DNA of 64,000 nt from Elusimicrobia bacterium RIFCSPLOWO2_02_FULL_39_32 (GTDB lineage: Bacteria > Elusimicrobiota > Elusimicrobia > 2-02-FULL-39-32), in the NCBI GenBank assembly GCA_001800135.1, contig MGUU01000002.1, forward strand, positions 2,388 through 66,387, given 5' to 3'. Every line of letters begins with the position of its first letter. The first letter of the stretch is position 1. The notes below the pieces were generated by a model that searched no databases, had not been told where the DNA came from, and saw only the letters and a list, made by a program, of their open reading frames with translations. A program made the position numbers and the translations under genes. Below are positions 23,229 through 44,823 of this stretch, piece by piece.

Positions 23229-23783
23229 TTGATGAGTGAATCAAAATCAGACTCTGATATTATTCAGGAAATTAGAAATGGAGAGATTCAATCCTTTGCT
23301 GAAATTATTAAAAAATATCAAAATAAGGTTTTAAACCTTTGTCATTCAATTGTAGGCGAGTCCCATGCTGAAGATGCTGCCCAGGAAATCTTCATAAAAG
23401 CTTATCAATCTCTTCCTAATCTTAAAATATCATCCTTTTTTTCTACCTGGCTTTATAGAATCGCTTACAACCACTGCCTCAACATCCTTTCTAAACAAAA
23501 AATAAATAATACTGTATCTTTAGATGCTCTAGATCAGGAAATAGAGGGAATTGATCCTACTTTTCCATCCAAATTAGAAACCGAAGAAGCAAAAGAGCTG
23601 ATCCAAAAAGCTTTAGAACTTCTCCCCCCAGAGGCTCGAATGATTCTTACCCTTAGAGAAATGGAAGGTTTAAGCTATAAAGAACTCGCTCTATTACTTG
23701 AAATTCCTGTAGAGACCATCAAGGTTCGACTTTTTAGAGCAAGAAAATCACTGATCTTAGCCTTTAAAAAAATAGGCCTGTAA
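23229..23783 (+). CDS. ECF-type RNA polymerase sigma-70 factor
   Basis: Sigma-70 region 2 (FSTWLYRIAYNHCLN) and region 4 HTH (LSYKELALLLEIPVETIKVRL). Confidence 0.85.
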   Translation: MMSESKSDSDIIQEIRNGEIQSFAEIIKKYQNKVLNLCHSIVGESHAEDAAQEIFIKAYQSLPNLKISSFFSTWLYRIAYNHCLNILSKQKINNTVSLDALDQEIEGIDPTFPSKLETEEAKELIQKALELLPPEARMILTLREMEGLSYKELALLLEIPVETIKVRLFRARKSLILAFKKIGL

Positions 23784-23823
23784 CATTTCTCTTTTAATCT
23801 TGTCTAAATAAAGGAGATAAAAA

Positions 23824-24369
23824 ATGAAACATGAAGAAATAGAAGAACTCCTATCTGCCTTTTATGATGATGAACTAGAACCCCTGCAAAAAAATCTAAT
23901 AACCCACCATCTTCAATCTTGCCAGAACTGTCATTTAATCCTAGAATCTTGGAAAAAAATTAAACAAAGCGCTTTTTTACAGGTTCCACTTCAAATTAAG
24001 GAAAGTTTTGCAGAAAAAGTAATGGCTAGGATTGAAGAAAAACCTAATTCTGTTTCTTTCACTTTATTTAAACTTTCAGAAACTTTTACTTTTTCTGCCT
24101 TGAAAACCAGTTTTAATACTCATTGGAGGTCGCCAGACTTAAGGATTCAATGGAAAATTGCTTTAGCCTTATCTAGTTTGCTTTTTATCCTGCTTATTCC
24201 TTTGGAAAGAAACTCAGATATGCGGGAAGAACCTGACTCCAGCGAGATACTTCTAGGAAATATTGAAAACAACTCTTTGCAAGCTGAAAATTGGCTATTT
24301 TCTGAAAGCGAAGATCAAAAAGAAGATTTTATGGAAATGGTTTTTGAAAAGTACAATGAAAATATTTAG
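23824..24369 (+). CDS. Anti-sigma factor, zf-HC2 (ZAS) type, with a TM segment
   Basis: HLQSCQNCH (H-x3-C-x2-C) follows the sigma gene. One TM helix (IALALSSLLFILLIPL). Confidence 0.7.
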   Translation: MKHEEIEELLSAFYDDELEPLQKNLITHHLQSCQNCHLILESWKKIKQSAFLQVPLQIKESFAEKVMARIEEKPNSVSFTLFKLSETFTFSALKTSFNTHWRSPDLRIQWKIALALSSLLFILLIPLERNSDMREEPDSSEILLGNIENNSLQAENWLFSESEDQKEDFMEMVFEKYNENI

Positions 24370-24381
24370 GAGGAAATTTTA

Positions 24382-24774
24382 ATGAATCTTAAAAAAATTA
24401 TTGTATCTTTCCTGATAGGCCTTCTGGCAGGAGCAGCTCTCTATAAATGGTCTGCTTATTACTGCGGATTTCATTGTCATGGCAAGTGGGGATGGGGAAT
24501 GCATCGAGAATTTAAGACTGGTAAAATGCTGGAGAAATACACAAAAAAATTGAACTTAACTGATGACCAAAAACAAAAAATTGAAAAAATCTTAAATGAT
24601 AACTTTCAACAATTTAAAGAGTTAAAAAGTAAAGCGCGTCCTCAATTTGAAGAGCTTAAATCCAAAACCCACTTAGAGATTAAAAAAATTCTAAGCCCTG
24701 AACAAACTGTTAAGTTTGAAAAAATGATAGAGGAACGAAAGAAAAAAAGGAAAAAGAGGTTTGAAACCCATTGA
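24382..24774 (+). CDS. Spy/CpxP-family periplasmic stress protein
   Basis: Signal/TM helix. LTDDQKQKIEKIL (LTxxQ) motifs. Confidence 0.6.
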   Translation: MNLKKIIVSFLIGLLAGAALYKWSAYYCGFHCHGKWGWGMHREFKTGKMLEKYTKKLNLTDDQKQKIEKILNDNFQQFKELKSKARPQFEELKSKTHLEIKKILSPEQTVKFEKMIEERKKKRKKRFETH

Positions 24775-26027
24775 TTTTACTTTACTTATTAATAACCGCA
24801 ATGATTCCCGCTATTGCTTTTTCAGATGAAAAAGATTCAGATTCCATGAATCTAACTTGGGAACAGATTGTTCAAACTGCGGAAAAAAACAATCCAGACA
24901 TTCTAGCTGCGCGCTCAAACATTAAATCGTCAGAAGCAAAAATTAAAATTAATCTTAGCGATTTTTTTCCACAGTTATCTGGAAATGCTTCCTATTCTAA
25001 GTCCAAAACTCAAAGCAACATAAGTGAAGAGGATACTTCTCTTGGTTTAACTGCCCAGCAATCCATTTTTTCAGGATTCTCCTCTAAAGGAAATGTGGAT
25101 TCTGCCAAAGCTCTTTTTTTAAAAAGCAAAGCTAGCCTGTTAGAGACAGAATCGCGTGTATTGTACGAACTACGGTCTGCGTATATCAATGTCTTATATT
25201 CCCAAGAAAATAGTAAACTTCTTCAAAAAATTTTGGATCGTAAAGAGGATAACAAAAAATTAATTGAGCTGCGCTATCAGGGCGGGAGAGAAAATCGCGG
25301 ATCTTTCTTACGAGCCCAAGCTCAAGCTAGTCAATCCCAATTTGAACTAAAGCAGGCAGAACGTAATTTGCGTGTGGCTAAAAAAACTTTAAGCCGCGCT
25401 ATGGGAAAAGATTTAAACCCTTCTCAGAAAATTTTAGGATATTTTGAAGTTGAGATCCAAAACAACTCACCCGATTTTGAATTGTTAGCTAAACAAAACC
25501 CAACAGTTCGAAATAGTGAAGCTACTTTAATGAATGCTCAAAGCCTGCTGATTCAAGCCAGGTCCAATTTTTTTCCATCTTTGTCGCTTTCTGCCAGCGG
25601 AAAAAAGCAAGGTAAAAATTTAACACTGAATAATGATAGCTGGTCTATTGGAGGATCAATCTCTTACCCGTTTTTTGCCGGAGGGAGACATTATTATAAT
25701 GTGCTTGAGGCTAAAGCAGAAATAGAGCAAGCTCTAGCCCAACTAGAAAGCCAGGAACAAAAAATTAAAATTGCTTTAGAAGATGCTTATGTAAAATTCG
25801 AGAATGCGCTAGAGCAGGTTAAAATTCAAAAACAATTTTTGGAAGCTGCCCAAGAGCGGGCAAAAATTGCCCGCTCACAATATAATAACGGCATGCTTTC
25901 TTATCAAGACTGGGACTTAATTGAAAATGACCTTACCCTTACGGAAAAACAAACTCTAGAATCCTTACAGAGAGCAGCGCTGGCTGAAGCTGCATGGTTT
26001 GAAACCCAAGGGAAAAGTTTACATTAA
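24771..26027 (+). CDS. TolC-family outer-membrane efflux protein
   Basis: Signal peptide. Two OEP repeats. Confidence 0.8.
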   Translation: MILLYLLITAMIPAIAFSDEKDSDSMNLTWEQIVQTAEKNNPDILAARSNIKSSEAKIKINLSDFFPQLSGNASYSKSKTQSNISEEDTSLGLTAQQSIFSGFSSKGNVDSAKALFLKSKASLLETESRVLYELRSAYINVLYSQENSKLLQKILDRKEDNKKLIELRYQGGRENRGSFLRAQAQASQSQFELKQAERNLRVAKKTLSRAMGKDLNPSQKILGYFEVEIQNNSPDFELLAKQNPTVRNSEATLMNAQSLLIQARSNFFPSLSLSASGKKQGKNLTLNNDSWSIGGSISYPFFAGGRHYYNVLEAKAEIEQALAQLESQEQKIKIALEDAYVKFENALEQVKIQKQFLEAAQERAKIARSQYNNGMLSYQDWDLIENDLTLTEKQTLESLQRAALAEAAWFETQGKSLH

Positions 26028-26037
26028 ACCCAAATAT

Positions 26038-27033
26038 ATGAAAACTAAAAAAATCCTAAAAATAACTCTAATTCTAATTCTGATTGGAATTTGTTTGTTT
26101 TTCTGGAAAAAATTTAAGCGCAAAAATTTAAAAGAGAGATTTAAAACCATAGCTGTAGAAAAAGGAAATATTAAAATTACAGTGCAAGCTACTGGCACCC
26201 TGATGCCGCAAAATCGGCTGGAAATAAAACCACCTATTCCTGGAAGGATAGAGAACATCCGTGTTGAGGAAGGACAAACAGTTAAAAAAGGAGAGATTCT
26301 TGCCTGGATCAGCAGCACAGAAAGGGCCGCTCTCCTGGATGCAGCCCGCTCCAAAGGTGAAAAAGAACTTACCTACTGGAAGGATCTCTATAAGCCAACC
26401 CCATTAATATCTCCCATGGATGGAGTGATTATTGTGCGCAACATGCAGCCAGGCCAAAGCATTACAATTCAAGATGCTCCTCTTGTGTTATCGGACCGTC
26501 TAATTGTTAAAGCTCAGGTAGATGAAACGGATATTGGACAGTTGCTCCTTCAGCAAAAAGTAGAAATTATTTTAGATGCTTACCCAAATGTAAAGATTAA
26601 AGGCACAGTGAATCACATCGCCTATGAATCTAAAACCGTGAACAATGTGACGATGTACGAGGTGGAGGTATTGCCGGAAAAAATTCTAGATTTTATGCGC
26701 TCTGGCATGACTGCAAATCTTAAATTTACTATTCAAGAGAAAGAACATATTCTCATTATTCCACAGGAAGCTGTGAAAACCATGGATAACCAGACAACTG
26801 TGTTTGTTCCTTCTAAAGAAGAAAAAAATAAAAAAAACAGAATTCCAAAAACCATTGAAACTGGAATAACAGATGGAAAAAAAATTGAAATCCTTCAAGG
26901 TCTTTCTGAAGGCGAACCTGTCTTAGTTCCTGAAATAAGATTCCAAAACTTAAAATTAAAAAACAACGGGGTTAACCCATTTATGCCTGCAAGAAGAGGT
27001 TCAGGAAATAGAACAAGCGAAACAAAAAAATAA
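26038..27033 (+). CDS. macA: Efflux periplasmic adaptor subunit (MacA/HlyD family)
   Basis: N-terminal TM helix, then biotinyl/lipoyl-like and beta-barrel MFP domains. Start chosen at ATG 26038 (MKTKKILK). Confidence 0.8.
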   Translation: MKTKKILKITLILILIGICLFFWKKFKRKNLKERFKTIAVEKGNIKITVQATGTLMPQNRLEIKPPIPGRIENIRVEEGQTVKKGEILAWISSTERAALLDAARSKGEKELTYWKDLYKPTPLISPMDGVIIVRNMQPGQSITIQDAPLVLSDRLIVKAQVDETDIGQLLLQQKVEIILDAYPNVKIKGTVNHIAYESKTVNNVTMYEVEVLPEKILDFMRSGMTANLKFTIQEKEHILIIPQEAVKTMDNQTTVFVPSKEEKNKKNRIPKTIETGITDGKKIEILQGLSEGEPVLVPEIRFQNLKLKNNGVNPFMPARRGSGNRTSETKK

Positions 27034-27050
27034 TTTTTTAAAATTTCATT

Positions 27051-29039
27051 ATGCTAATCGAAATAAAAGGAATTAAAAAAACATACCAGATGGGTGAGAC
27101 CATGGTGCCAGCTCTTCGCAACATTAACTGTTCCATTGATTCAGGAGAATTTGTAGCGATTATGGGCCCTTCCGGATCAGGAAAATCCACGCTCATGCAC
27201 ATCCTGGGACTTCTGGACACCCCAGACTCTGGTTCCTACAGGTTAGCTGAACAGGAAATTTCAGGTTTAACTGAAGATGAACTCTCCCGATTGCGCGGAA
27301 AAATAATCGGATTTGTCTTTCAACAATTCAATCTCATTCCAAGAACATCCGCTTTAGAAAATGTTGCTCTGCCCTTGCTTTACACACAATCTAAAGATCA
27401 TAAAACATTTCCAAAACATCTATTAGAACAGGTAGGACTTGAAGGAAGAATAAACCACAAGCCCAATGAACTCTCCGGAGGGCAGCAACAAAGAGTTGCC
27501 ATTGCCAGAGCTCTTGTGAACCAGCCAAGAATCATTTTTGCAGATGAACCAACCGGCAATCTTGATTCAAAATCTCAAAATGAGATCATGCATATTTTTA
27601 AAAAACTAAATGAACAAGGACTGACTATTATTTTAGTGACTCATGAAGAAGAAGTAGCGGCTAATGCTAACAGGATCATTAAAATGCGAGATGGAATGAT
27701 CCTCTCAGATGAAATCCGCTCAGAACTAGAAAAATTTAACACTGTCCGAACAATAACAAAACCCGCTATAAAAACCCTTGAGGCGCTCTTTCCACAAACA
27801 AAAAATAGTCCTTCCTATTCTCTTTTTGAAGCCTCTGAACATTTTAAACAGGCATGGCGCTCATTATCCATCAATAAAGTGCGCACAGGACTTTCCATGC
27901 TTGGAATCCTGATTGGGGTGGGAGCAGTGATCAGCATGCTCGCGTTAGGTCAAGGCGCAAAAGAAACCCTTGAAAAGCAGTTATCTTCCCTGGGGTCTAA
28001 CCTTTTAGTTTTGCGGCCTGGTTCCATGAGAGCAAGAGGAGTTGCTTTACAAACCGGAGAAGTCACAAAATTTACTATCCAAGATGCTGAAGAAATTAAA
28101 AAAAATATTCCCATGGTAAAAGATGTCTCACCTTCAGTGACTGGGCGTGGCCAAATCGTAGTTGGAAATAAAAATTGGAACAGCCAAATTTTAGGCGCAT
28201 CTCCTCAATACGCTTCCATGCGAGCATCCTCCCCTTATCTTGGCAGATTTTTTACTCATGATGAAGACCGCCAAAGGGCTCGCGTTGCAGTTTTAGGACA
28301 AACCATTGTTAGGGAACTTTTTTTAAACTCTAACCCTATTGGAGAAATGATTAAAATTAATAAAATTAATTTTCAGGTGATCGGTATCTTGCCGGAAAAA
28401 GGAGCCACTTCTTGGCGTGATCAAGATGACATTGTAGTGATCCCACTCAATACTGCAATGCGCCGGGTTTTAGGAAAAGATTTTGTGGATTCCATAGACA
28501 TAGAGATCATGGATGCAAACAGCATGGAAGATTCCCAAGAACAAATTAAAAACCTAATCATTCAGAACCATCGGATCCCTGCTTCCCAACAAGAATCTTT
28601 TGAAATACGAAATTTAGCGGAAATCCAGGCTGCGCTTTCTGAAACCAGCAGAACCATGTCCTTGCTTTTAGGATCAATCGCTTTGATTTCTCTAATTGTA
28701 GGCGGGATTGGTATTATGAACATTATGCTGGTTTCTGTCACTGAGAGGACCCGAGAGATTGGCCTGCGTAAAGCTGTGGGAGCAAAACAGTTTGATATCC
28801 TTAGCCAATTTTTGATTGAAGCAGTGGTGGTCAGTTGTTTAGGAGGATTGGCAGGGATAGTATTAGGCGCTTCTATTTCCTTTACTATTACCCAGCTAGC
28901 AGGTTGGACCACAAATATATCCTTAGAATCAATACTAATCGCTCTGCTTTTTTCTTTAGGAGTCGGAATAGGATTTGGTCTTTGGCCAGCTAAAAAAGCA
29001 GCTTCTCTTAATCCTATTGACGCTTTGCGTTACGAATAA
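27051..29039 (+). CDS. macB: MacB-type ABC transporter, fused ATPase-permease
   Basis: Walker [25 protein letters not shown], a periplasmic MacB_PCD domain and a C-terminal FtsX domain. Confidence 0.9.
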
Positions 29040-29187
29040 AAATCTATTGATCCTTTCTCCAAATAAAAAAATCAGAATTGCGCTTGTTTAGGGCGCAGCC
29101 ATATTTAATCACCTAAAAAATCTCTGTAAGATTCTCCAAAACTTGACGACTAAGGGGTAGAAGCTGTATTGTAAAGGAGAATCTTTC

Positions 29188-30297
29188 ATGAGCATAAGTG
29201 TCTTCATTTTATTTGCTGGACTCTTTTTATCTTATTCAAACGGAGCGAACGATAATTTTAAAGGAGTAGCGACTTTGTTTGGAAGCGGAGCTTCCAATTA
29301 TAAACGCGCTCTCTATTGGGCAACGTTCACAACTTTCCTTGGATCTTTGGCTGCTTTATTTTTTTCAAAAGGGTTAGTTGCAGTTTTTAGTGGAAAGGGG
29401 TTGGTGCCAAACTTAAGTACAGAGATGCCCTTGTTTTTATTCTCTCTTGGTTTAGGGTCAGCGCTCACTATTTATCTCGCTACTGTGACAGGTTTCCCCA
29501 TCTCTACAACTCATGCTCTTGTTGGCGGACTGATCGGCGCAGGCCTTGCAGTAGGACAAAACATTCAGATCGAAAAACTCTGGAACATTTATCTATTACC
29601 ACTCCTATTTTCTCCTCTAATCTCTCTAATTCTAACTCGAGCTTTCTATCCTTTATTTCAATCTCTAAGAGAAGTGTGTGGCATCAATGGCCAAACCTGT
29701 TTTTGTATTAATGGTAAAGAAGAGATTGTGGAAGTAACACCAGGAGGAGCTGCAATATTAAAATCATCTGGTATTACTTTAACAATAGATCAGGTCTCTG
29801 TGTGCCAAACCCGCTACATGGGCACGCTTTTAGGTTTGAGAGCACAGACTGTTCTTGACCGGGTTCATTATCTCAGCGCAGGCGCAGTGAGCTTTGCCCG
29901 AGGACTGAATGACGCCCCTAAGATAGCGGCTTTGATGATTGGCGCTAAAATTTTTGGAATTAATAATGCCATCTTGTGGGTTGGGAGCCTTATGGTTTTG
30001 GGAGGATTACTCAATGCGCGCAAAGTAGCTCAAACCATGAGCAAAAAAATTACTCCGATGAACCACGGTCAAGGCTTTACAGCCAATTTAGTTTCTGCGA
30101 TTCTTGTGACTACAGCATCATTTTTTAGTCTTCCTGTTTCAACCACGCATGTGACCTGCGGCGCGATTTTTGGAATTGGCATGGTAAGCCAGAAAGCTGA
30201 TTGGAGGATGATTAGAAATATTTTAATCTCTTGGCTAATTACGCTGCCGGTTGCCGGAATATTATCGGCATCAATTTTATTATTACTGAAAAATTAG
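29188..30297 (+). CDS. PiT-family inorganic phosphate (potentially arsenate) transporter
   Basis: GANDNFKGVATLFGSG and duplicated PISTTH / PVSTTH signature motifs of the PHO4/PiT family. Confidence 0.8.
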   Translation: MSISVFILFAGLFLSYSNGANDNFKGVATLFGSGASNYKRALYWATFTTFLGSLAALFFSKGLVAVFSGKGLVPNLSTEMPLFLFSLGLGSALTIYLATVTGFPISTTHALVGGLIGAGLAVGQNIQIEKLWNIYLLPLLFSPLISLILTRAFYPLFQSLREVCGINGQTCFCINGKEEIVEVTPGGAAILKSSGITLTIDQVSVCQTRYMGTLLGLRAQTVLDRVHYLSAGAVSFARGLNDAPKIAALMIGAKIFGINNAILWVGSLMVLGGLLNARKVAQTMSKKITPMNHGQGFTANLVSAILVTTASFFSLPVSTTHVTCGAIFGIGMVSQKADWRMIRNILISWLITLPVAGILSASILLLLKN

Positions 30298-30449
30298 GGG
30301 AAAAATATGACCGAGCTTCAGCGACTGGAGGTGACGTCCCAAAGGGACTGTCCCTTCCTAATAAAAAATTTTTTAAGAGGAGGGACGAAGTCACACTCTC
30401 GTCCTTTAGGAAGGAATGGTTGTTCATTGATCTGTTTTAGGAGAAAACC
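30298..30449 (+). promoter_or_regulatory. Structured intergenic leader: stem-loops with alternative pairings upstream of the radical-SAM/ArsM gene
   Basis: Hairpins AAGGGA-CTG-TCCCTT and GGACGA...TCGTCC. GTGACGTCCC can also pair with GGGACGAAGTCAC. A strong RBS AGGAGAAAACCATG follows. Confidence 0.35.
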
Positions 30450-32966
30450 ATGACTGAAGAGATTAAAAATTCCACTATTTTTTATAAACCTAATTTAGAG
30501 ACATGGGGAAAAAATGAGTTTCAGTTTTTTTTAGATGGCGATTCACCCAACTGGATCGCTGTAGATGAGAGAGGATCCCAGATTCTTCAATGGGTGAATG
30601 GGCAAAGGAACTTTGGTGAGATCCTGCGACTCTACAGCCAAACTCAAATGTTTGATTTTGCAAAATCCTGGCTCCATTGTCACACTTTTCTAAAAGAGGC
30701 ATTGCAGCGAGGGATTATTTCTCTCCAACCTTTTGAAACATCCCCCTATCTAGGCAGAAGCCATTATCTTAAAACCGAAAAGCTAAAAGAATTTTGGATT
30801 CATTTAACTCAAACCTGCAACCTCGCCTGCACCCATTGTTTGGTTTCTTCCGGCCCCCAAGGAGAGAAAGGAATGAATACAGAATTTTATATCCGCGCCA
30901 TTGACGAAACTAGCGGTTTAGGCGTTGAACGCTATTACTTTACCGGCGGGGAACCTTTCGCTCGTCCGGATATTTTTGAACTTATTCGATATACAACAGA
31001 AACAAAACAAAAAGAATTAATTATTCTAACGAATGCAACCCTTTTTACCAATGCGCGGATTGAACAGCTTAAAAAACTGAGTCGAGAAAAAGTGAAATTT
31101 CAGGTGAGCATAGATGGAACGACTGCTCTAACAAACAATGCTATCCGGGGAACAGGTGTTTTTGAAAAGGCATGTCAGGGACTACGCGCCTTAAGCGAAC
31201 TTAGGTTTGAAACTTCTTTAACTGCCGTGGTCACAAAAAAGAATATAAAGGAACTAGAAAACTTGCCCAAGCTTGCCAAGGAACTGGGAGCCAAATCTAT
31301 TCACCTCATGTGGCTCCATAAAAGAGGCCGAATTTTGGAATCTGCGGATTCTTCTTTTCCAACCACAGCGGAACTTTTGCATTTGGCAAAAAGTGTAAAG
31401 CTCTCCTCAGAAAATTTAGGAATTGTTTTTGATAATATGGAATCTCTTAAACTTCGTATAAACGGTCAACCTAATGTTAAATACGATTTAGGAATGATGG
31501 GTTGGGAAAGTTTGTGCCTCTATCTCAATGGGGAGCTCTATCCTTCTGCTGCAATGGCTGGTCACACGGATTTAACTCTTGGCGCTCTCAATGGCAAAAC
31601 AATTCAAGAGCTTTGGCTTAAAAGCGATTTAGCGGATCGCATCCGCAATTTAAGCGTGATTCAAAAAGTTTCAACCCTGAAGAATCCTTTTCAGTTTCTA
31701 ACAGGCGGCGGAGACATTGAACATAGTTATTTTTTCTCTGCCAATGGACAGCAAGGAAACTTTCTCGCGCCAGATCCTTATTACGAAATTTATGTTGAAC
31801 TGATAAAAGAGATCATGCTAGATTTAGCAGTTCAAAAAAAAGAAACGATTAATCAAAAATCTGGGTTCAATGCTCCAGTTATTTTCCATTCCATGGGAGA
31901 AGATGCTATCACTTGCAGTGAAGATGCTTTAGGCTGGTTAAATTCAAACGAATTGCCAACAGTGCGCTTGCTCCATTCTAACTGCGTCCTTTCCTTTGAT
32001 GTAGAAAAACCATATAAAGCGGTACAAAAATTTTATGGAAAAGCTGCTGAAAAACCGCAGGAAGAGCTTTGCTGCCCAATAAAATATGACGACCATGAGA
32101 TCAGCCACATTCCACAAGAGGTGCTTGATCGTTTTTATGGGTGCGGCTCCCCCATTTCCCTTTCTCAAGTAAAAGAAGGAGAAACAACTCTGGATCTAGG
32201 TTCTGGCGCTGGCATAGACTGTTTTATAGCGGCAAAAAAAGTAGGCGCTTTGGGAAAAGTGATTGGCATTGACATGACAGATCAAATGCTTGAAGTTGCA
32301 AATCGCTGCAAAGAAACAGTAACAAAAAATCTTGGGTACGATGTAGTGGAATTTAAAAAAGGGTATCTGGAAAAAATTCCTGCGCCAGACCGATCTATAG
32401 ACTTAGTCACTTCTAACTGCGTAATCAATTTATCCCCAAATAAAAAAAAGGTGTTTGCGGAAATTTGGCGCATCTTAAAAGATACCGGCCGTTTTGTGGT
32501 GGCAGATATAGTCTCTGACATATCTGTGCCAATTTCTCTGCAAGCTCACCAAGAGCTTTGGGGGGAGTGTATTTCCGGCTCTTTATCGGAAGATGAATTT
32601 CTCGCTCAGCTCCAAAAAGCGGGGTTCTACGGGATTTCGCTTCTAAAAAAAACATTCTGGAAAGAGGTGGAAGGCGTAAAGTTTTACTCCATCACAGTGC
32701 GCGGATTCAAATTTGAAAAAAAGGAAGGATGTAAATTTATAGGACAAAAAGCGATCTATCTTGGTCCCTACCAATCCATAATGGATGAAGAAGGTCACCT
32801 CTTCCCTCGTGGAGAAGCAGTAGAGATTTGCACAGATACCGCTGCCAAACTACAAGCAGAACCGTACATGAACCAATTTCATATTCTAGAGCCCAGAAAT
32901 CAAACAAAAATTAAATTTGAAGTTAAAGAGAACAGTTCAAACTGTTGTGGTCCAAGCTGCTGCTGA
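30450..32966 (+). CDS. Fusion protein: PqqD-like (RRE) domain, then radical SAM domain, then ArsM-type As(III) S-adenosylmethionine methyltransferase with a Cys-rich tail
   Basis: N-terminus [27 protein letters not shown] is PqqD-like. CNLACTHC is a radical SAM cluster motif. The C-terminal half aligns to ArsM ([40 protein letters not shown]). All four As-binding Cys equivalents are present: LCCP, GCGSP, SNCV, WGECISG. It ends NCCGPSCC. Confidence 0.8.
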
Positions 32967-33141
32967 AGGGACATTTTTGCATCATTATTCTTAAAAGGAA
33001 TGCGCGTAGAATGATCTTGTGAGCTCAGGACTTGTGGAAGCGGGCCATATGGTAGACGCGCTTTTAGAAGAACTAGCGAATCAACTTAAAGAAAGTCAGG
33101 TAGAATTGGCGACTTTTACAAAGAATAACTGAGGATTTATC

Positions 33142-34248
33142 ATGAAAGCGATTGCTATTTTTCCGGGAAAAATTGGGAGCGCTCATTTAAGGGAAATTCC
33201 TAAACCTAAAGTAGAAGATGCCGCCAACGGACGAGGAGTATTAGTAAAGGTCTTGCGGGTTGGAGTTGACGGAACGGACAAAGAAATAGACGCGGCTGAA
33301 TATGGAACTGCTCCAAAAGGTTCTGATTTTCTTGTCACAGGACACGAAAGTTTTGGGATTGTGGAATCGGTTGGGAAAAATGTGAGCGAGTTTGTGCCGG
33401 GCGATTTTGTGGTGGCAACAGTGCGCAGACCCGGGAATAGTATTTATGACAGAATCGGAACCTACGACATGACTTTAGATGAAATTTACTATGAACGGGG
33501 AATTAATCTTTTACATGGATATCTCACGGAATATTATGTGGACGAACCAGAATATATTGTAAAAGTGCCGCAAGGATTAAAAGAAGTTGGAGTTCTGCTG
33601 GAACCCACCAGCGTGATAGAAAAAGGGATTGCTCAGGCCTACGAAATCCAAAGAAGGTTAAAAGTTTGGCAGCCAAAAAGAGCAGCTGTTTTGGGAGCAG
33701 GAACCATTGGTTTGTTGGCAACAATCGCGCTTCGCTTAAGAGGGATTGAAGTTTGCGCCTTTGCCAGAACCAAACCTCCGTATCTTAATTCCAATTTAGT
33801 CAAAAAAATTGGCGGCTGCTATCATAGCCTGCAAGAAATTTCCCTTACCGAATCTTCCAAAAATCATGGGCCTTTTGATCTGATTTTTGAAGCGACAGGT
33901 TTTGCTCCACTCGCTTTTGAGGCGATGAATGTTCTTGGAAAAAATGGAGTGTTAGTTCTTTCCAGTGTCACTGGAGGAGGGCGAAATATCCAAATTCCTG
34001 CGGACCAAATTAACCTTGGATTTGTTCTTGGAAACAAGGTAATGGTGGGAACAGTAAATGCCAACCGAGAATATTTTGAGATGGGCGTCAAAGATCTTTC
34101 TCAGGCGGAGCTTACCTGGCCCGGCTGGCTTAACAAACTCTTAACCCATCCTATTCAAGGATTAGAAAATTATAAACAGTTAATTGAAACGTTAAAGGGA
34201 AAAAAGGAAGCGATAAAAGTTTTTTGTGAGGTGGCGCCTCTACCATGA
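33142..34248 (+). CDS. Zn-dependent medium-chain dehydrogenase (archaeal-type glucose 1-dehydrogenase-like)
   Basis: [12 protein letters not shown] Zn motif. Rossmann motif GAGTIGLLA. Confidence 0.7.
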
Positions 34249-36941
34249 AAACCGAAGAAGAAAAAAGGCTAAAAGAGTCCCGAGATCAAACAGCCCACTG
34301 GAAACGATGGGGCCCATACGTTAGTGACAGGCAATGGGGCACGGTTAGAGAAGATTACAGCGCCCATGGAACGGCATGGGACTATTTTCCCCACGATCAT
34401 GCACGTTCGCGAGCGTACCGATGGGGCGAAGATGGAATCTTTGGCATTTCGGATAATCACCAAAAACTTTGTTTCGCTTTAGCTTTGTGGAATGGGGAAG
34501 ATCCTATTTTAAAAGAGAGATTCTTTGGACTCTCCGGAACCGAAGGGAATCATGGGGAAGACGTAAAAGAGTATTATTTCTATTTAGACAATACCCCCAC
34601 CCATTCCTATATGAAAGCTCTCTACAAGTATCCCCAATCTGCGTTCCCCTATTCTTGGCTCGTACAAGAAAATAGAAAGCGAGGCCGCCAAAAACCTGAG
34701 TTTGAATTGTTGGGTACAGGTCTCTTTAATGAAGATCGGTACTTCGATGTCTCTGTAGAATATGCGAAGAGCTCTCCGGAAGAAATTTGTATTCGCATTC
34801 AGGTAACGAACCGTGGACCGGAAGAAAAAACAATACATCTGCTGCCAACACTTTGGTTCCGCAACACATGGTCGTGGAAAGAAAACTCAAACAAACCACT
34901 ATTGAAAGCAGTGGGAACAAAAGCCAATGTTAAAGTGATTGAATCTGAACATCTCACCCTTGGCAAACGCTGGCTCTACTGCGAAGGAAATCCAGAACTC
35001 CTCTTTACAGAGAACGAAACAAACTTTAGCCGACTCTATGGAACACCTAACCCATCGCCCTATGTAAAGGACGGAATTAACGAAACTATCGTCCAAGGAA
35101 ATAAGAACGCGGTCAACCCGGATCGCACAGGGACAAAAGCTTCCGCCTATTATTTAATCAATGTCGCGCCTCAAGGAACTAAGACGATACAACTCGTTTT
35201 AACTCCTCAAACAAAATCCCGTCCCTTTGGCGCCGCGTTTAAAAAAACTTTTGAACTGCGTCAAAGGGAAGCGGACGACTTTTATAAAAATCTTTGTCCC
35301 TATCCTATGATGGAAGATATGAAGAATGTTCAAAGACAAGCATTCGCAGGAATGCTTTGGACAAAACAATTCTATCATTATGTTCTGGAAGATTGGTTAA
35401 AGGGGGACCCAACTCAACCTGCTCCTGCGCCGCAACGTAAGAACGGCAGAAATGGGGATTGGAAACATCTTTATAGTGAAGATATTCTTTCCATGCCGGA
35501 CAAATGGGAATACCCTTGGTTTGCTTCGTGGGACTTGGCGTTTCACCTTATTCCTTACGCCATGATTGATCCGGACTTCGCTAAACACCAACTCCAATTG
35601 CTTACGCGCGAATGGTACATGCACCCGAATGGGCAAATCCCCGCGTACGAGTGGGCCTTTGGCGATGTGAATCCCCCGGTTCATGCCTGGGCAGCATTAC
35701 GAATCTATCGAATAGAAAAAAAGATGACAGGGAATTCCGACCGACAATTTCTGGAAAGAGTGTTCCAAAAGCTTCTGCTTAATTTTACATGGTGGGTCAA
35801 TAAAAAAGATACCGAAGGAAAAAATATATTTGAAGGCGGATTCCTTGGGCTAGACAATATTGGAATATTTGATCGCAGCAAACCCCTTCCTAACGGAAGA
35901 TTCATTGAGCAGTCGGATGGCACCAGTTGGATGGGCATGTATTGTTTAAATATGCTTCAAATTGCTTTAGAACTTGCAAAAGAAAATTCTTCCTATGAAG
36001 ACATTGCCAGCAAGTTCTTTGAACATTTTCTTTATATTGCCGACGCCATGAACCATCGTGGAGGTGAAGAATTAGAACTTTGGGATGAGGAAGATGGTTT
36101 TTATTATGACGTTCTTCACTATAAAGGCGGACGCCACACTCCCATAAAAATTAGATCCATGGTAGGGCTTATCCCGCTTTTTGCAGTGGAAACTTTAGAG
36201 CCGGAAATCATCAATCGTTTTCCCGGATTCAAAAAGAGAATGGAATGGTTTATTAAAAATAGGCCCGACCTTGCGCGGAATATTGCCAGCATGGAAAAGC
36301 CCGGAATGGGCGAGCGCAGGCTTTTATCTATTGTAAACCAAGAAAAGTTGAAGCGTATCCTCGAAAAAATAGTAGATGAATCAAGATTCCTAGGAAAACA
36401 TGGTGTGCGCGCCGTGTCTAAAATTCATCAGAATAACCCTTATGTTTTTAGCATGGATGGCTTTGAGGCGCGCATTGACTACGAACCTGCGGAGTCGTCT
36501 AGTGGGCTCTTTGGCGGCAACAGCAATTGGCGTGGACCCATTTGGTTTCCTCTAAACTTTTTATTGATAGAATCTCTTCAGAAATTTCATCACTATTTAG
36601 GAAACGAGTATAAAATTGAGTGCCCTTCGGGTTCAGGGAAACAGGCTACGCTTTGGGAAGTGGCCGCAGAAATTTCTCACCGCTTAATTGGTATATTCTT
36701 GAAGGATGAGTCTGGGGATAGACCTGTTTATGGGGATGTAGAAAAGTTTCAAAAGGATCCTCATTGGAAAGATCACATTTTATTCTACGAATATTTTCAC
36801 GGCGACAATGGCTCTGGGATTGGAGCCAGCCACCAAACAGGCTGGACCGGCATCATCGCCAAACTTTTGCAACAGTGCGCAGAATACTGTGGTCAACACA
36901 AACCGCCCCGGCTGTTGAAGGAGTCAAAAATTGAAAACTAA
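34245..36941 (+). CDS. Glycoside hydrolase, GH63-like (alpha/alpha)6-barrel (glucosyl-/mannosylglycerate hydrolase or processing alpha-glucosidase family)
   Basis: Length and motifs ([35 protein letters not shown]) match the GH63/MGH family. It overlaps the upstream gene by 4 nt. Confidence 0.6.
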
Positions 36942-37665
36942 ATTTTTTATTTATGCTGTTGGGGTATTCCTAGCGGGATTCTTTGGGAATGAAAGAGTAT
37001 ATGCAGAATTTGTGATTGATCGTTTTTCTTCTCAAACCGAAAGTAACGGAATTCCCAAGGGTTGGGAAGAGCTTACATTTAAAAAAATCCCAAACCATAC
37101 CCGATATACGGTAGTTCAAGAAGGAAACAATTTTGTTCTTCAAGCGGTAAGTAGAAACTCTTCTTCCGGAATCCTAAAAAAAGTACCTCTAAATCCGAAA
37201 GATTATCCCATTCTTAAATGGCAGTGGAAAGTGGAAAATATCTTAAGCAAAGCAGACGCAAAGAAAAAGTCCGGAGACGATTATCCTGCTCGAATTTATG
37301 TGGCGTTTAAATATGACCCAACCCAAGCGAGCCTGTTAGAAAAAGCAAAATATGGGACGGTGAAAAAACTTTACGGAGAATATCCTCCTCAAGGAGCTTT
37401 AAACTACATTTGGGATAACCGGCTTCCTGTTGGAACCGCTCTGGATAACGCCTACACAGACCGGGCGAAAATGATCGTGGTAGAGAGCGGGCGAGACAAA
37501 ATAGGACAGTGGGTTTCCGAAGAAAAAAATATTTATGAAGATTACAAAAGGATATTCGGTTCCGAACCCCCGGAAATAGAATTTATTGCCGTTATGAGCG
37601 ATACCGATAACACGGAAGATTTCGCTGTGGCTTACTTTGATAACATTGTTTTGGAGAATAAATGA
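36931..37665 (+). CDS. DUF3047-family secreted protein
   Basis: Signal peptide. Conserved YPARIYVAF / NYIWDN blocks. Confidence 0.55.
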
Positions 37666-38366
37666 AAAATAAATTAAATTCCACACTTAAAGGGATCATT
37701 GTTTTTAGCGCAATAGCTCTTTTAATTGTTGCCGCAAATAAATTCAATGTTCAAGAGCTTTTAAAAAATTCTTTAGACAAAATTCAAGAGCTTGGGATAT
37801 TAGGAATAGGACTCTTTATTCTCATTTATCTTCTAGCTTGCGTTTTGTTTCTCCCGGGTTCTATTTTAACTCTGGGAGCAGGAGCGATCTTTGGTGTCAT
37901 CAAAGGTTCCGTTATTGTTTCTTTGAGTTCTACCCTTGGAGCCACTTGCACTTTTCTTATTGGAAGGTATCTTGTAAGACATTGGGTGGAATCTAAAATT
38001 GAAGGGAACCCAAAATTTAAAGCCGTGGACGAAGCTGTGGCAAAAGAGGGGTGGAAAATTGTGGGGCTCACCCGTCTATCTCCTATCTTTCCATTTAATC
38101 TGCTTAACTACGCCTATGGGGTAACCAAGGTAACGATACGGGATTATATTCTTGCATCCTGGATCGGCATGATGCCGGGAACGGTAATGTACGTTTATAT
38201 CGGTTCTCTCGCAGGAGACATAGCCACACTTGGGTCAAGAGCAACCACCGGAGCCGTGAGTTCGGTACAGTGGACAATAAGAATTATAGGATTCATTGCC
38301 ACAGTGCTTGTGACAGTTTATGTAACGCGAGTAGCCAAGAAAGCCCTCAATGAAAAAATTTCTTGA
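37662..38366 (+). CDS. DedA / TVP38-TMEM64 family membrane protein
   Basis: VLFLPGSILTLGAGAIFG motif. Confidence 0.8.
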   Translation: MKNKLNSTLKGIIVFSAIALLIVAANKFNVQELLKNSLDKIQELGILGIGLFILIYLLACVLFLPGSILTLGAGAIFGVIKGSVIVSLSSTLGATCTFLIGRYLVRHWVESKIEGNPKFKAVDEAVAKEGWKIVGLTRLSPIFPFNLLNYAYGVTKVTIRDYILASWIGMMPGTVMYVYIGSLAGDIATLGSRATTGAVSSVQWTIRIIGFIATVLVTVYVTRVAKKALNEKIS

Positions 38367-38416
38367 AAGATGGGAAATTAGTGACTGCCCCCCATTTCCT
38401 AAGGAGGAATTCGTTT

Positions 38417-39955
38417 ATGCCATTAACTAAAGATATTGTAACCATCCCCCCCATGGACAAGCACAACCAAACCCTTGTTTCCAACGTGCATCCATCCAAC
38501 TGGGAAAATCCAACCCCTACAGAAGTCTATAACTTAGTTGTGATTGGAGGAGGTACTGCCGGGCTGGTTACCGCGATTGGGGCAGCAGGTCTGGGAGCAA
38601 AGGTAGCCCTCATAGAAAAACATTTAATGGGCGGAGACTGCTTAAACGTGGGCTGCGTTCCTTCTAAGGCGATAATTCGTTCTTCCCGAGTAGTCGCAGA
38701 AATTCGTGAAGCCTCTTCCTATGGAGTCCGAGTTCCGGATGGGACCGAAGCTAACTTTGCAGCAGTCATGGAGCGGGTGCGTAAGCTCCGAGCTGGCATT
38801 AGCCACCACGACTCTGCGGAAAGATATAAAAATTTAGGTATAGATGTATTTCTTGGGGAAGCGCAATTTAAAACAAGTTATAGCGTTGAAGTAAACGGAA
38901 AAATTCTAAAATTTAAGAAGGCGGTTATTGCCACCGGAGCCAGAGCCGCTCACCCACCTATTCCGGGACTTCCAGAAGCGGGGTTTCTTACTAACGAAAC
39001 TGTTTTCAATCTTACCTCTCTACCAAAAAGATTTCTCATTGTTGGCGCAGGTCCCATCGGCTGTGAGTTAGCCCAAGCATTTAGTCGTTTAGGATCCGAA
39101 GTCCATCTTTTTGAGGCGATGCATGGATTTCTTCCCAGAGAGGATCAGGATGCGGCAGGAATTTTAAAGAATGGTTTTGATAAAGAGAAAATCCATTCCC
39201 TTTGCTGCTGCAATATTTTAAAGGTAGAAAAGCGCGGGATGGAAAAGATTGTACATTTCACGGCGAAACACGAGGGGGAAAAACCTCAAGAAATTGCGGT
39301 AGATGAAATTTTGATTGGGGTAGGACGAATTCCTAATGTAACCGGTTTGAACCTTGAAACCGTCGGAGTAAAATATGATTCGAAGTCCGGAGTTCAAACG
39401 AACGATTATCTCCAAACGACCAACCCCAACATTTATGCCGCCGGTGACATCTGTCTTAAATATAAGTTTACTCACACTGCGGATGCAACAGCTCGCATTG
39501 TGATACAAAATGCTCTTTTCTTTAACAGTAAAAAAGTAAGTTCTCTAATTGTTCCCTGGTGCACTTACACAGACCCGGAAATCGCGCACGTTGGTCTCTA
39601 TGAACAGGAAGCGAAAGAAAAGGGAATTGAAGTTGAAACTTTTACGCGTGAATTTAAAGAAGTGGACCGAGCGATCCTAGACGGAGAAACAGAAGGCTTT
39701 GTGAAAGTGCATGTAAAAAAAGGGACAGATACAATTCTGGGATCCACGATTGTTTCCCGCCACGCGGGAGACATGATTAGCGAAATCACTTTAGCGATGA
39801 CCGCAAAAGTGGGGCTAGGAACCATTGCAAACGCAATTCATCCTTACCCAACACAAGCCGAAGCGATTAAACAGGTTGCAGATGCCTACAATCGTACCCG
39901 ACTCACCCCAACCATTAAAAAAATAATTTCCAATTGGCTTGTCTGGAGAAGGTAG
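38417..39955 (+). CDS. FAD-dependent pyridine nucleotide-disulfide oxidoreductase (class I; dihydrolipoamide dehydrogenase / MerA-like core without the C-terminal Cys pair)
   Basis: GGGTAGLVTA FAD motif. Redox disulfide GGDCLNVGCVPSK. NAD motif and dimerisation domain. RBS AAGGAGG precedes the ATG at 38417. Confidence 0.8.
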   Translation: MPLTKDIVTIPPMDKHNQTLVSNVHPSNWENPTPTEVYNLVVIGGGTAGLVTAIGAAGLGAKVALIEKHLMGGDCLNVGCVPSKAIIRSSRVVAEIREASSYGVRVPDGTEANFAAVMERVRKLRAGISHHDSAERYKNLGIDVFLGEAQFKTSYSVEVNGKILKFKKAVIATGARAAHPPIPGLPEAGFLTNETVFNLTSLPKRFLIVGAGPIGCELAQAFSRLGSEVHLFEAMHGFLPREDQDAAGILKNGFDKEKIHSLCCCNILKVEKRGMEKIVHFTAKHEGEKPQEIAVDEILIGVGRIPNVTGLNLETVGVKYDSKSGVQTNDYLQTTNPNIYAAGDICLKYKFTHTADATARIVIQNALFFNSKKVSSLIVPWCTYTDPEIAHVGLYEQEAKEKGIEVETFTREFKEVDRAILDGETEGFVKVHVKKGTDTILGSTIVSRHAGDMISEITLAMTAKVGLGTIANAIHPYPTQAEAIKQVADAYNRTRLTPTIKKIISNWLVWRR

Positions 39956-43191: not shown

Positions 43192-43611
43192 ATGAATGAA
43201 CTAACCATTGGACAAATTGCAAAAAAGGCTGACGTAAACGTTCAAACGATCTATTTCTATGAACGTAAGAACTTAGTAACGCCCGTGAAACGAAGGGATA
43301 CGGCTATTTCTCATTCTGGTTATAGGATTTATAGTGAAGCAGAGGTTCAAAAAATCCGGTTTATTAAAAACGCGCAAGAGCTTGGATTTAGCCTAAAAGA
43401 AATTTCCGAATTACTTCACTTGCGTATTTCTACAAAAGCTCAGTGTGGTCTGGTTCAGTTAAAAGCTGAAAAAAAACTTAAAAGCATTGAGGAAAAATTG
43501 AAATCTTTAAGTCAGTTAAAAAAAGTTCTAGGAAATTTACTGAATGTTTGCAGGAATCGTAAAACTACAGATGCTTGTCCTATTTTAAAAAGTTTACAAA
43601 AAAGGAGGTGA
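43192..43611 (+). CDS. merR: MerR-family transcriptional regulator with Hg(II)-type metal-binding cysteines
   Basis: N-terminal HTH. Cys85, Cys120 and Cys129 give spacings of 35 and 9, identical to the spacing of the three metal-binding cysteines in canonical MerR. Confidence 0.85.
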   Translation: MNELTIGQIAKKADVNVQTIYFYERKNLVTPVKRRDTAISHSGYRIYSEAEVQKIRFIKNAQELGFSLKEISELLHLRISTKAQCGLVQLKAEKKLKSIEEKLKSLSQLKKVLGNLLNVCRNRKTTDACPILKSLQKRR

Positions 43612-43617
43612 AATAAA

Positions 43618-43740
43618 ATGAAACAGATCATGATAGTTCTGGGATTGCTAACCTTAGTAAGCGGAGGGATTTGGGCATATTCCACTTTAGGTAATGTTTG
43701 CTGCGGCAACCCTTCAGCGCTGTGCTGCCCTTTAAAATAA
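43618..43740 (+). CDS. Unannotated 40-aa single-TM peptide with a CC-x6-CC tail (MKQIMIVLGLLTLVSGGIWAYSTLGNVCCGNPSALCCPLK)
   Basis: AGGAGG RBS 9 nt upstream. Located between merR and merTP. Below the 60-aa cutoff of the ORF track. Confidence 0.55.
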   Translation: MKQIMIVLGLLTLVSGGIWAYSTLGNVCCGNPSALCCPLK

Positions 43741-43754
43741 GGAAGTTTTCTAAA

Positions 43755-44336: not shown

Positions 44337-44347
44337 GGAGAAACTCT

Positions 44348-44815: not shown

Positions 44816-44823
44816 TTATTTAA

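Follow-up and report, generated by a model that had tools for sequence, protein, structure and literature searches.

A PiT permease and an RRE, radical SAM and ArsM fusion protein as a candidate organoarsenical biosynthesis module in an Elusimicrobia genome

We analyzed a 64,000-nucleotide stretch of contig MGUU01000002.1 from Elusimicrobia bacterium RIFCSPLOWO2_02_FULL_39_32 (hereafter the window), in which a gene for a PiT-family permease is followed by a gene for a fusion protein made of three parts: an RRE/PqqD-fold domain, a radical S-adenosylmethionine (SAM) core with a SPASM-derived region and an ArsM-type methyltransferase. The reading that we favor, and regard as fairly probable, is that the fusion methylates arsenic and forms a carbon–arsenic (C–As) bond in an arsenosugar-like biosynthetic pathway. 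The adjacent PiT may serve the module as its importer of arsenate (or phosphate). In related genomes the fusion stands in for both known arsenosugar enzymes, so that, as a C–As-forming enzyme of a third kind, it is a strong candidate. What was observed is reported below: the identities of the domains, how well the cysteines are conserved and which genes are associated with the fusion. The parts of this system and its general logic, an ArsM plus a radical SAM partner, are already known; the novelty lies in the architecture and where it came from in evolution, in the lost SPASM clusters and in the composition of the gene cluster. Full-text literature searches returned no description of an RRE–radical SAM–ArsM fusion or of its gene neighborhood.

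Architecture and family of the fusion protein

An earlier note on this DNA, made from the letters alone, had singled out the two open reading frames (ORFs), and both were found where it placed them, on the plus strand, with all of the motifs that it quoted present in the translation. By sequence, the C-terminal half of the fusion is a complete ArsM-type methyltransferase. It matched Pfam Methyltransf_31 (E = 3e-30), and its best sequence matches in the PDB were 4fr0 and 4kw7 (phmmer, E = 9e-42, residues 551–809). The top 13 Foldseek matches were all ArsM or AS3MT proteins (E ~1e-22, 33–36% identity), and the half has the class-I SAM methyltransferase fold together with the ArsM C-terminal domain. 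The four As(III)-liganding cysteines that had been claimed are in place: C565, C657 and C707 aligned with Cys72, Cys174 and Cys224 of CmArsM, and a C541/C542 pair lies 23–24 residues upstream of C565, where Cys44 is expected (motifs LCCP at 540–543, GCGSP at 564–568, SNCVINLS at 655–662 and WGECISG at 704–710). ArsM cysteines are needed for catalysis (PMC8552651).

In a 149-sequence family alignment, from which residue conservation was read, C657 and C707 are conserved in 99% of the sequences, and C541, C542 and C565 in all of them. The arsenic-binding positions, whose mutation in orthologues the earlier note had named as evidence against its reading, are thus 99–100% kept in the 149 homologues. 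Two further cysteines in the ArsM C-terminal domain, C761 and C794, and the terminal C-x3-CC motif are 94–97% conserved. The Cys-rich NCCGPSCC tail was also correctly noted; its C833, C837 and C838 are 95–97% conserved, and it is disordered in the AlphaFold2 model (predicted local distance difference test (pLDDT) score <50 for residues 825–838). Against curated NCBIfam models, the isolated half scored 239 bits for the arsinothricin-type ArsM NF040538 (cut-off 500), 234 for PRK11873 (cut-off 263) and 151 for NF038099 (cut-off 400).

The radical SAM core matched PF04055 (E = 8.4e-21, residues 119–272), as expected from the CNLACTHC motif that had been pointed out. Both hallmarks of the superfamily, the CX3CX2C motif and the GGE SAM-binding motif, are present: C123, C127 and C130 and the stretch T165-G166-G167-E168 are invariant in the family, with the SAM motif reading GGEP at residues 166–169. 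The best NCBIfam matches of the radical SAM half were MftC, AhbD, StsB, PqqE and AlbA, all SPASM-type and all far below cut-off. SPASM/twitch enzymes carry a CX9-15GX4C ... CX2CX5CX3C signature that supplies the ligands of one or two auxiliary [4Fe-4S] clusters. The window protein had no Pfam match to SPASM and does not have this set of cysteine ligands: the remnant consists of C356 alone, with S366 in place of the second cysteine and an invariant GGGD-E (residues 419–424) in place of the CX2CX5CX3C box. The relatives P0251, P0255 and P0258 have an intact CxxCx5CGGGC box and a SPASM match. A further invariant cysteine, C512, lies in the motif H-S-N-C-V-L (H-x-x-C-V-L), which in the form H-C-x-C-V-L is the extreme C-terminus of stand-alone radical SAM relatives. 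In Foldseek, the N-terminal half (~520 residues) aligned best with CteB, over 482 columns at a target-normalized TM score of 0.68, followed by SkfB, SuiB, anSME and PqqE. The origin of the radical SAM half thus lies among peptide maturases of the SPASM type, whose auxiliary-cluster cysteines it no longer has.

Two more specific identities were considered for this half and rejected. The kinship with ArsS (TIGR04167) that the earlier note had proposed did not hold, as the match reached 74 bits against a cut-off of 300, covered model positions 2–150 of 303 and did not include the Cys/Sec-containing C-terminal domain of ArsS; compared directly with the ArsS of a Nitrospirae locus (L045), the fusion was 26.5% identical over 147 residues (tblastn). 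As for ArsL (NF040542), its RCCLKC motif is absent from the translation, and the family does not appear among the 25 best NCBIfam radical SAM matches listed.

The N-terminal domain of the window protein had no Pfam hit, and its NCBIfam match to PqqD was below threshold (E = 0.088). Across the family, 32 of 43 diverse N-domains matched PF05402 at E ≤0.1 (best 2.7e-07), and the top PDB matches of the family profile were the leader-peptide binders TbiB1, PqqD and TfuB1. The AlphaFold2 model of the domain (pLDDT 94) has a beta3-alpha3 order, with strands at residues 16–21, 24–29 and 35–38 and helices at 40–48, 55–66 and 70–86, which is the winged-helix fold of an RRE (three beta-strands and three helices). 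Foldseek returned the same three proteins at probability 1.00 and target-normalized TM scores of 0.72–0.77, and P33 and W35 are invariant in the family. The PqqD/RRE-like assignment made earlier is therefore sound at the level of family and fold. The full-length fusion was modeled with a pLDDT of 87.4 and a predicted TM score of 0.87, with disorder limited to the Fe–S loop and the Cys-rich tail.

A protein search found more than 120 full-length homologues of the fusion (50–99% identity), whose source names never go beyond 'methyltransferase domain-containing protein'. The family spans at least eight phyla, and full-length copies were found in species-representative genomes of Elusimicrobiota, Planctomycetota, Omnitrophota, Vicinamibacterales and other Acidobacteriota, Nitrospirota, Gemmatimonadales, Desulfobacterota and an anammox lineage. 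The closest relative is from a groundwater Elusimicrobia metagenome-assembled genome (L001), where the fusion is 86% identical and the gene order is the same. Searching the RRE–radical SAM half against the whole representative library gave 140 clusters at E ≤1e-30, which include stand-alone RRE–radical SAM proteins and fusions with an intact SPASM domain (P0251, P0255, P0263 and P0272). One relative, P0286, has the reversed order methyltransferase–radical SAM–SPASM, and in a sister group of ~1000–1080 residues (P0249, P0259, P0287 and others) the same radical SAM lineage (GGGD type) is joined to an ArsM-like domain and a C-terminal DUF5714. Most fused relatives retain the ArsM cysteines of the YGCG, SNCVxN and GEC motifs, so the pairing of an ArsM-like domain with this radical SAM lineage is both recurrent and old.

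A shorter fusion of 623 residues, with radical SAM and ArsM parts, no RRE and the same CGPECC tail, occurs in two Planctomycetota loci (L043, 5972–7843 on the plus strand, and L044). The L043-type fusion adjoins a divergently transcribed 629-residue radical SAM protein, and its radical SAM half is not an ArsS (64 bits against 300).

Gene neighborhood in the window and in related loci

The PiT gene encodes a full-length member of the PHO4 family, in agreement with the earlier call, as residues 18–360 cover model positions 1–350 of 350 (E = 9.4e-64; 216 bits, cut-off 33.7). No curated NCBIfam equivalog was reached (93 bits against 400 for the CysP-type sulfate permease and 66 against 800 for PitA). 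Pit systems take up arsenate. For the neighborhood analysis, ORFs were called and clustered in 46 homologous loci plus the window (47 in all) and neighbors were counted by tblastn; further contexts were added with precomputed Pfam labels. PiT homologues adjoin the fusion in 13 of the 47 loci, upstream or downstream, and the adjacency is seen with both gene orders in Elusimicrobiota, Planctomycetota, Omnitrophota, Acidobacteriota and Desulfobacterota. When contexts were sampled outward from PiT homologues, the fusion was directly adjacent in two of four, and the other two hold genes of the recurrent set described below and no fusion. In one PiT locus that has no fusion (L075), genes of the cluster are nevertheless present (Transglut, DsbH, GT2, reductase and VTT).

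At least one gene of a recurrent set was found in 34 of the 47 fusion loci. Apart from PiT, this set consists of VTT/DedA membrane proteins (14 loci), NF004991-type flavoprotein reductases (13, nearly always paired with VTT), DUF547 (16) and DUF3047 (5; adjoining the fusion in L002, L004, L070 and L072), together with four kinds of transferase: GT-C of the MptA/B/GT87 type (11), AglJ-like GT2 (13), TIGR04283-like GT2 (13) and TIGR04282-like DUF2064 (11). One or both of the last two were present in 21 of the 47 loci (tblastn). Several exceeded the curated cut-offs, both for TIGR04283 (cut-off 182; L069, 230 bits; L076, 233; N-terminal half of the L011 protein, 254) and for TIGR04282 (cut-off 134; L069, 208; L072, 192; L073, 187; L076, 186). 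NCBI names both families 'arsenosugar biosynthesis glycosyltransferase', and we take them to have been defined originally by co-occurrence with the ArsS family. No canonical ArsS was found in any fusion locus, as every tblastn match of ArsS was to the fusion's own radical SAM core (25–29% identity).

In some loci, genes with a more specific link to arsenic also adjoin the pair. A gene for an ArsR/SmtB regulator separates the fusion from PiT in L004 and L070 (98 and 94 bits, cut-off 55), the L004 protein ending in a Cys pair, and genes for low-molecular-weight protein tyrosine phosphatases (LMW-PTPs) abut PiT in L006, L007 and L073. The latter scored ~90 bits against a cut-off of 158 and are therefore called ArsC-like, not confirmed ArsC. 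In the Nitrospirae loci L045 and L046, a stand-alone ArsM is followed first by a true ArsS (453 bits against 300) and then by a PiT of the same type; the L045 ArsM, paired with the true ArsS, ends in CSPDGGCC, a tail similar to that of the fusion. Lipid enzymes (an acyltransferase, a patatin, or a fatty-acid hydroxylase or desaturase) are occasionally nearby. No ArsB, Acr3 or ArsP-type efflux gene was matched by tblastn with approximate queries in the 48 sequences searched.

Table 1 Features of the fusion protein and of the gene cluster in the window (positions count from the first letter of the window)
Feature	Position	Strand	Basis
PiT/PHO4-family permease, 369 aa	29188–30297	+	ORF, Pfam PHO4
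RRE–radical SAM–ArsM fusion, 838 aa (stop codon included in the positions)	30450–32966	+	ORF
RRE/PqqD-fold domain, aa 1–105	30450–30764	+	Family Pfam matches, AlphaFold2, Foldseek
Radical SAM core, aa 110–300	30777–31349	+	PF04055
CX3CX2C motif CNLACTHC, aa 123–130	30816–30839	+	
Degenerate SPASM/twitch-like region and linker, aa 301–520	31350–32009	+	
ArsM-type As(III) SAM methyltransferase, aa 521–838	32010–32963	+	
C-terminal Cys-rich tail NCCGPSCC, aa 831–838 (family consensus C-x3-CC)	32940–32963	+	
Glucose-dehydrogenase-like medium-chain dehydrogenase/reductase (MDR)	33142–34248	+	Pfam Glu_dehyd_C, E = 1e-49
GH63/MGH-like (mannosylglycerate-hydrolase-like) hydrolase	34245–36941	+	Pfam MGH1-like_GH, E = 2.9e-23
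DUF3047 protein	36931–37665	+	Pfam DUF3047, E = 1.1e-79
VTT/DedA-type membrane protein	37662–38366	+	Pfam VTT_dom, E = 1.7e-30
Class-I flavoprotein disulfide reductase, 530 aa	38363–39955	+	NCBIfam NF004991, 828 bits (cut-off 620)

The cluster in the window (29188–39955) comprises PiT, the fusion, the dehydrogenase, the GH63/MGH-like gene, DUF3047, VTT and the flavoprotein reductase (Table 1), and the GC content around the PiT and fusion ORFs is uniform at 0.41–0.42. Neither TIGR04282/3, GT-C, DUF547 nor ArsS was found anywhere in the 64 kb. The earlier statement that ArsR, ArsB and ArsC are missing was borne out: approximate reference queries for ArsR, ArsC, ArsB and Acr3 had no tblastn match in the window, and neither did the ArsR and ArsC-like proteins of related loci. 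As it is without TIGR04282/3, ArsR and ArsC, the window's module counts as a reduced version of the cluster, made up of PiT, the fusion, DUF3047, VTT and the flavoprotein reductase. The earlier note had drawn the module more narrowly, so that its two core genes, which stand, were covered and the likely downstream members (36931–39955) fell outside; these are added here for their recurrence in related loci (DUF3047 in 5 of 47, VTT in 14 and the reductase in 13). Whether the dehydrogenase and GH63/MGH-like pair (33142–36941) belongs to the cluster is uncertain. L001 and Omnitrophota L010 have the pair in the same place, with the fusion on one side and VTT on the other, and this conserved placing hints at a sugar-processing role in the cluster.

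The 152-nt spacer between PiT and the fusion (30298–30449, plus strand) folds strongly into nested hairpins (–48.1 kcal/mol, z = –2.65). In L001 the distance from the PiT stop to the fusion start is 14 bp, with the same ribosome-binding site that ends the window's spacer. A repeated or mobile element was rejected as an explanation of the spacer, which is single-copy in the window and missing from L001, the closest relative. Control of the operon by a riboswitch or another known RNA was likewise rejected, as Rfam gave a single, unrelated match in the window, an nhaA-I riboswitch-class RNA at 63 kb (RF03057, 63072–63134 on the minus strand, 47.7 bits against a gathering score of 37). In promoter and terminator scans of 28900–33300, sites were no commoner than in shuffled sequence.

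Some other genes of the window and of the related loci are recorded here. Directly upstream of PiT (23229–29039, plus strand), an extracytoplasmic-function sigma/anti-sigma pair is followed by TolC-like, HlyD-like and MacB-like efflux genes (by eye); this block is syntenic in L001 and not at other fusion loci, and is therefore probably unrelated. A run of four plus-strand genes at 43192–47199 holds a MerR-like regulator (123 bits, below the cut-off of 150.85), a MerTP-like membrane/HMA protein (106 bits against 180) and two more ORFs, one of them a Cys-rich 155-residue protein that is 33.8% identical to the zf_CopZ gene of L076 and the other a 791-residue protein whose L069 and L075 homologues carry Thioredox_DsbH. 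The ArsM–ArsS–PiT locus L046 is flanked by homologues of this run (MerR, 52% identity), as are the fusion clusters L076, L069, L010 and L006, and the Mer-like set may therefore belong to the wider neighborhood. In Vicinamibacterales, a ~700-residue radical SAM protein with an HMPTM-type N-terminal zinc ribbon is encoded near the fusion (L011, 13863–16013 on the plus strand, the copy examined with Pfam; also L012, L013, L015, L021, L022, L026 and L032), and a 710-residue radical SAM gene near the fusion in L073 (8348–10480) is possibly of the same kind. Downstream of the fusion, PiT and ArsC-like genes of L006 (8296–10158, plus strand) lies a pair resembling a DUF692/MNIO enzyme and a DUF2063-like partner (by eye). 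A metallophosphoesterase flanks the solitary fusion loci L068 and L071; it was considered as an arsenosugar-linked phosphoesterase and rejected, having no match to such a family.

Proposed pathway and competing explanations

From these features we infer that arsenic is the substrate, which way PiT transports and to what end, in what order the steps occur, what type of radical is formed, what is made and what part, if any, the RRE plays. In the pathway that we propose, arsenate would be brought in by the adjacent PiT permease and reduced to As(III), in some relatives perhaps by the neighboring ArsC-like LMW-PTP. The As(III) would be held by thiols, those of the four cysteines of ArsM and of the flexible C-x3-CC tail at the C-terminus, and the ArsM domain would methylate it with SAM. 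The radical SAM domain would reductively cleave a second SAM and make a further C–As bond on the thiol-bound trivalent arsenical, to which the radical site might gain access, by analogy with ArsL, through the C-x3-CC tail or through the set C356/C489/C512 presenting the arsenic. The simplest such step would be an ArsS-like 5'-deoxyadenosyl transfer, and we hold that particular group to be a possible identity of the added moiety more than a probable one. In relatives, the TIGR04282/TIGR04283 transferases, AglJ-like GT2, GT-C and DedA/VTT proteins may elaborate the product, which could be sugar- or lipid-linked; such an end product, suggested by the glycosyltransferase, GT-C, DedA and lipid-enzyme neighbors, is speculation. 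Among characterized enzymes, ArsS adds a 5'-deoxyadenosyl radical to an arsenical that carries methyl groups (10.64898/2026.04.29.721666; PMC12159101), and ArsL, which transfers a 3-amino-3-carboxypropyl radical, depends on the RCCLKC motif at its C-terminus for the holding of As(III) (10.1101/2024.02.01.577332).

Several points weigh against this pathway. The window itself is without TIGR04282/3, GT-C, DUF547, ArsR, ArsC or an efflux gene, and 13 of the 47 fusion loci have no cluster gene nearby. The ArsM half misses every curated ArsM cut-off, as the L045 ArsM beside the true ArsS misses that of PRK11873 (229 against 263), and the ArsC-like proteins are also below curated cut-offs. Beyond the common core, the radical SAM half is unrelated to ArsS and ArsL, and its nearest relatives act on peptides. 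A well-conserved RRE has been kept that is superfluous for an ArsS-like small-molecule reaction, and no precursor-like ORF is conserved nearby. The arsenosugar label of TIGR04282/3 presumably goes back to co-occurrence with ArsS, not to experiment. Finally, the substrate of PiT cannot be read from its sequence, and the chemistry of every family member is likewise deduced from sequence.

The permease is the component for which a simpler account carries most weight, namely that PiT is a housekeeping phosphate or sulfate permease outside the pathway and adjoins the fusion by coincidence. No PiT is present in 34 of the 47 fusion loci, two of the four sampled PiT homologues are without a fusion in the surrounding 6 kb, a substrate is not given by any curated model and, in the window, a structured spacer of 152 nt parts the two genes. 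Chance would nonetheless have to explain an adjacency that recurs in five phyla and in both gene orders, a PiT of the same type after ArsM–ArsS in Nitrospirae, an ArsC-like gene abutting PiT in three loci (L006, L007 and L073), a PiT–fusion spacing of only 14 bp in L001 and a locus, L075, in which PiT is without the fusion and still in the company of cluster genes. We regard coincidence as rather unlikely.

Because the lineage of the radical SAM half is one of peptide maturases, a peptide- or protein-directed reaction keeps a small share of the probability. In its general form, the fusion would be a maturase of RiPPs (peptides that are made on the ribosome and modified after translation) or of proteins, in which the RRE recruits a distal peptide or a Cys-rich tail (its own or a partner's), the radical acts on the peptide and the methyltransferase methylates the peptide or delivers arsenic. 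The N-domain does have a genuine and conserved RRE fold, the N-terminal 520 residues align structurally with CteB (482 columns), SkfB and SuiB, the best sequence families are the peptide maturases MftC, StsB, PqqE and AlbA, and the SPASM domain is intact in some relatives, stand-alone as well as fused. The surroundings and the cysteines argue otherwise. No small ORF of 18–110 residues is conserved within 1.5 kb of the gene when 39 loci are clustered, and the small ORFs that do recur are antisense or alternate frames of PiT, GT2, GT-C or the fusion itself. No RiPP-type protease, leader peptidase or exporter recurs, the neighbors being glycosyltransferases, transporters and redox proteins; the SPASM auxiliary-cluster cysteines used by most peptide maturases are lost in the window protein and most of its family; and four invariant ArsM cysteines would be needless in a peptide methyltransferase. 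We consider a maturase unlikely.

A narrower variant deserves separate mention, in which a functional RRE guides a radical SAM reaction whose carbon radical, formed on a ribosomal peptide or protein (a distal precursor or a Cys-rich tail), is coupled to thiol-bound arsenic, with methylation by the ArsM domain following. If true, arsenic would be found for the first time in a RiPP or a protein modification, and C–As bond formation by radical SAM enzymes would gain a third mechanistic class beside ArsS and ArsL. The earlier note had hinted at peptide-linked arsenic, a suggestion to which the search of the 39 loci for a precursor ORF lent nothing, and we give this variant a low probability.

We consider it similarly improbable that the fusion serves detoxification only, with ArsM making volatile or exportable species, the radical SAM part acting as an accessory (in electron delivery, regeneration of the ArsM dithiol or C–As cleavage) and PiT being an ordinary phosphate transporter. 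ArsM enzymes are best known for detoxification (PMC12159101), the ArsR and ArsC-like neighbors of some loci resemble resistance genes, and the fusion occurs alone, with no biosynthetic neighbors, in 13 of the 47 loci. A stand-alone ArsM would suffice for that purpose, so that ~520 extra residues with an intact radical SAM site across at least eight phyla argue for a second chemical step. The lack of any tblastn match to ArsB, Acr3 or ArsP-type efflux genes in the 48 sequences (approximate queries) and the association with TIGR04282/3 also point away from export and toward elaboration. The clustering with TIGR04282/3, the ArsR and ArsC-like neighbors and the PiT that follows ArsM–ArsS support the earlier suggestion of a biosynthetic module as opposed to a plain resistance operon.

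We consider it least likely of all that Sb(III), Se, Te or some other soft element is the true substrate, with PiT, VTT/DedA and the flavoprotein reductase handling its oxyanion: ArsM enzymes can methylate other metalloids, flavoprotein disulfide reductases reduce tellurite- and selenite-type oxyanions, PitA and DedA-family proteins are linked to tellurite and selenite uptake, the window's own cluster holds no arsenic-specific gene (PiT, VTT, a MerA/lipoamide-dehydrogenase-like flavoprotein and DUF3047 only) and a MerR/MerTP-like set lies 3 kb downstream, but the specific markers that adjoin the fusion are those of arsenic (an ArsR/SmtB that ends in a Cys pair, the ArsC-like LMW-PTP and, associated with ArsS, TIGR04282/3), and the four-Cys ArsM signature is fully conserved.

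Comparison with known systems

Only ArsS and ArsL are given in papers of 2025–2026 as radical SAM enzymes that form C–As bonds (PMC12159101; 10.64898/2026.04.29.721666). The fusion family is a candidate third beside them, and it descends from peptide maturases, not from ArsS or ArsL. It is widespread in uncultivated phyla of groundwater, soil and sediment (Elusimicrobiota, Omnitrophota, Planctomycetota, Nitrospirota, Vicinamibacterales and others). If the family is active on arsenic, organoarsenical biosynthesis, arsenosugar-like or lipid-linked, would have a range far wider than cyanobacteria and a few Proteobacteria, and the fusion gene would allow a hidden branch of the arsenic cycle to be traced genetically. 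It would also offer a single-polypeptide model for the passage of As(III) between a methyltransferase site and a radical site, and would provide the first functional context for the PiT, VTT/DedA, flavoprotein reductase, DUF547, DUF3047 and GT-C partners.

Compared with the ArsM plus ArsS pair (Synechocystis type; TIGR04167), the fusion shares the combination of a four-Cys ArsM-type methyltransferase with a radical SAM enzyme. The neighborhoods of its relatives hold the ArsS-associated TIGR04282 and TIGR04283, and a true ArsM–ArsS locus carries both a PiT of the same type (L045 and L046) and a Cys-rich ArsM tail (L045). It differs in being a single polypeptide with an extra N-terminal RRE and a SPASM-derived region, and its radical SAM half is not an ArsS. 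The arsinothricin pair, ArsL plus ArsM, likewise sets a radical SAM enzyme and an ArsM jointly on As(III), the presumed substrate of the fusion, and the ArsM half of the fusion best matches the arsinothricin-type ArsM model, to its last position. Both systems also have a terminal Cys-rich motif, for which the holding of As(III) has been shown in ArsL (10.1101/2024.02.01.577332) and is plausible by analogy in the fusion. However, the fusion has neither RCCLKC nor an ArsQ-type permease, its Cys-rich tail is on the methyltransferase half and not on the radical SAM half, and its RRE and SPASM-like parts are missing from ArsL.

The RRE-containing SPASM/twitch maturases (CteB, SkfB, SuiB, AlbA, PqqE/PqqD and MftC/MftB) have the same order of RRE, radical SAM and SPASM-like parts, and the fold of the fusion's RRE matches leader-peptide-binding domains. 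Unlike them, the fusion has lost the auxiliary Fe–S cysteines, is joined to an ArsM, has no precursor gene nearby and has neighbors that are not RiPP-like. With canonical ArsM/AS3MT enzymes (CmArsM, 4fr0; human AS3MT, 8xt7), it shares a Rossmann core and the ArsM C-terminal domain at 33–36% identity, as well as the equivalents of Cys72, Cys174 and Cys224 and an upstream Cys pair; its differences are that the methyltransferase is part of a larger protein, has the extra cysteines Cys761 and Cys794 and the C-x3-CC tail, and scores 234 bits against the PRK11873 cut-off of 263.

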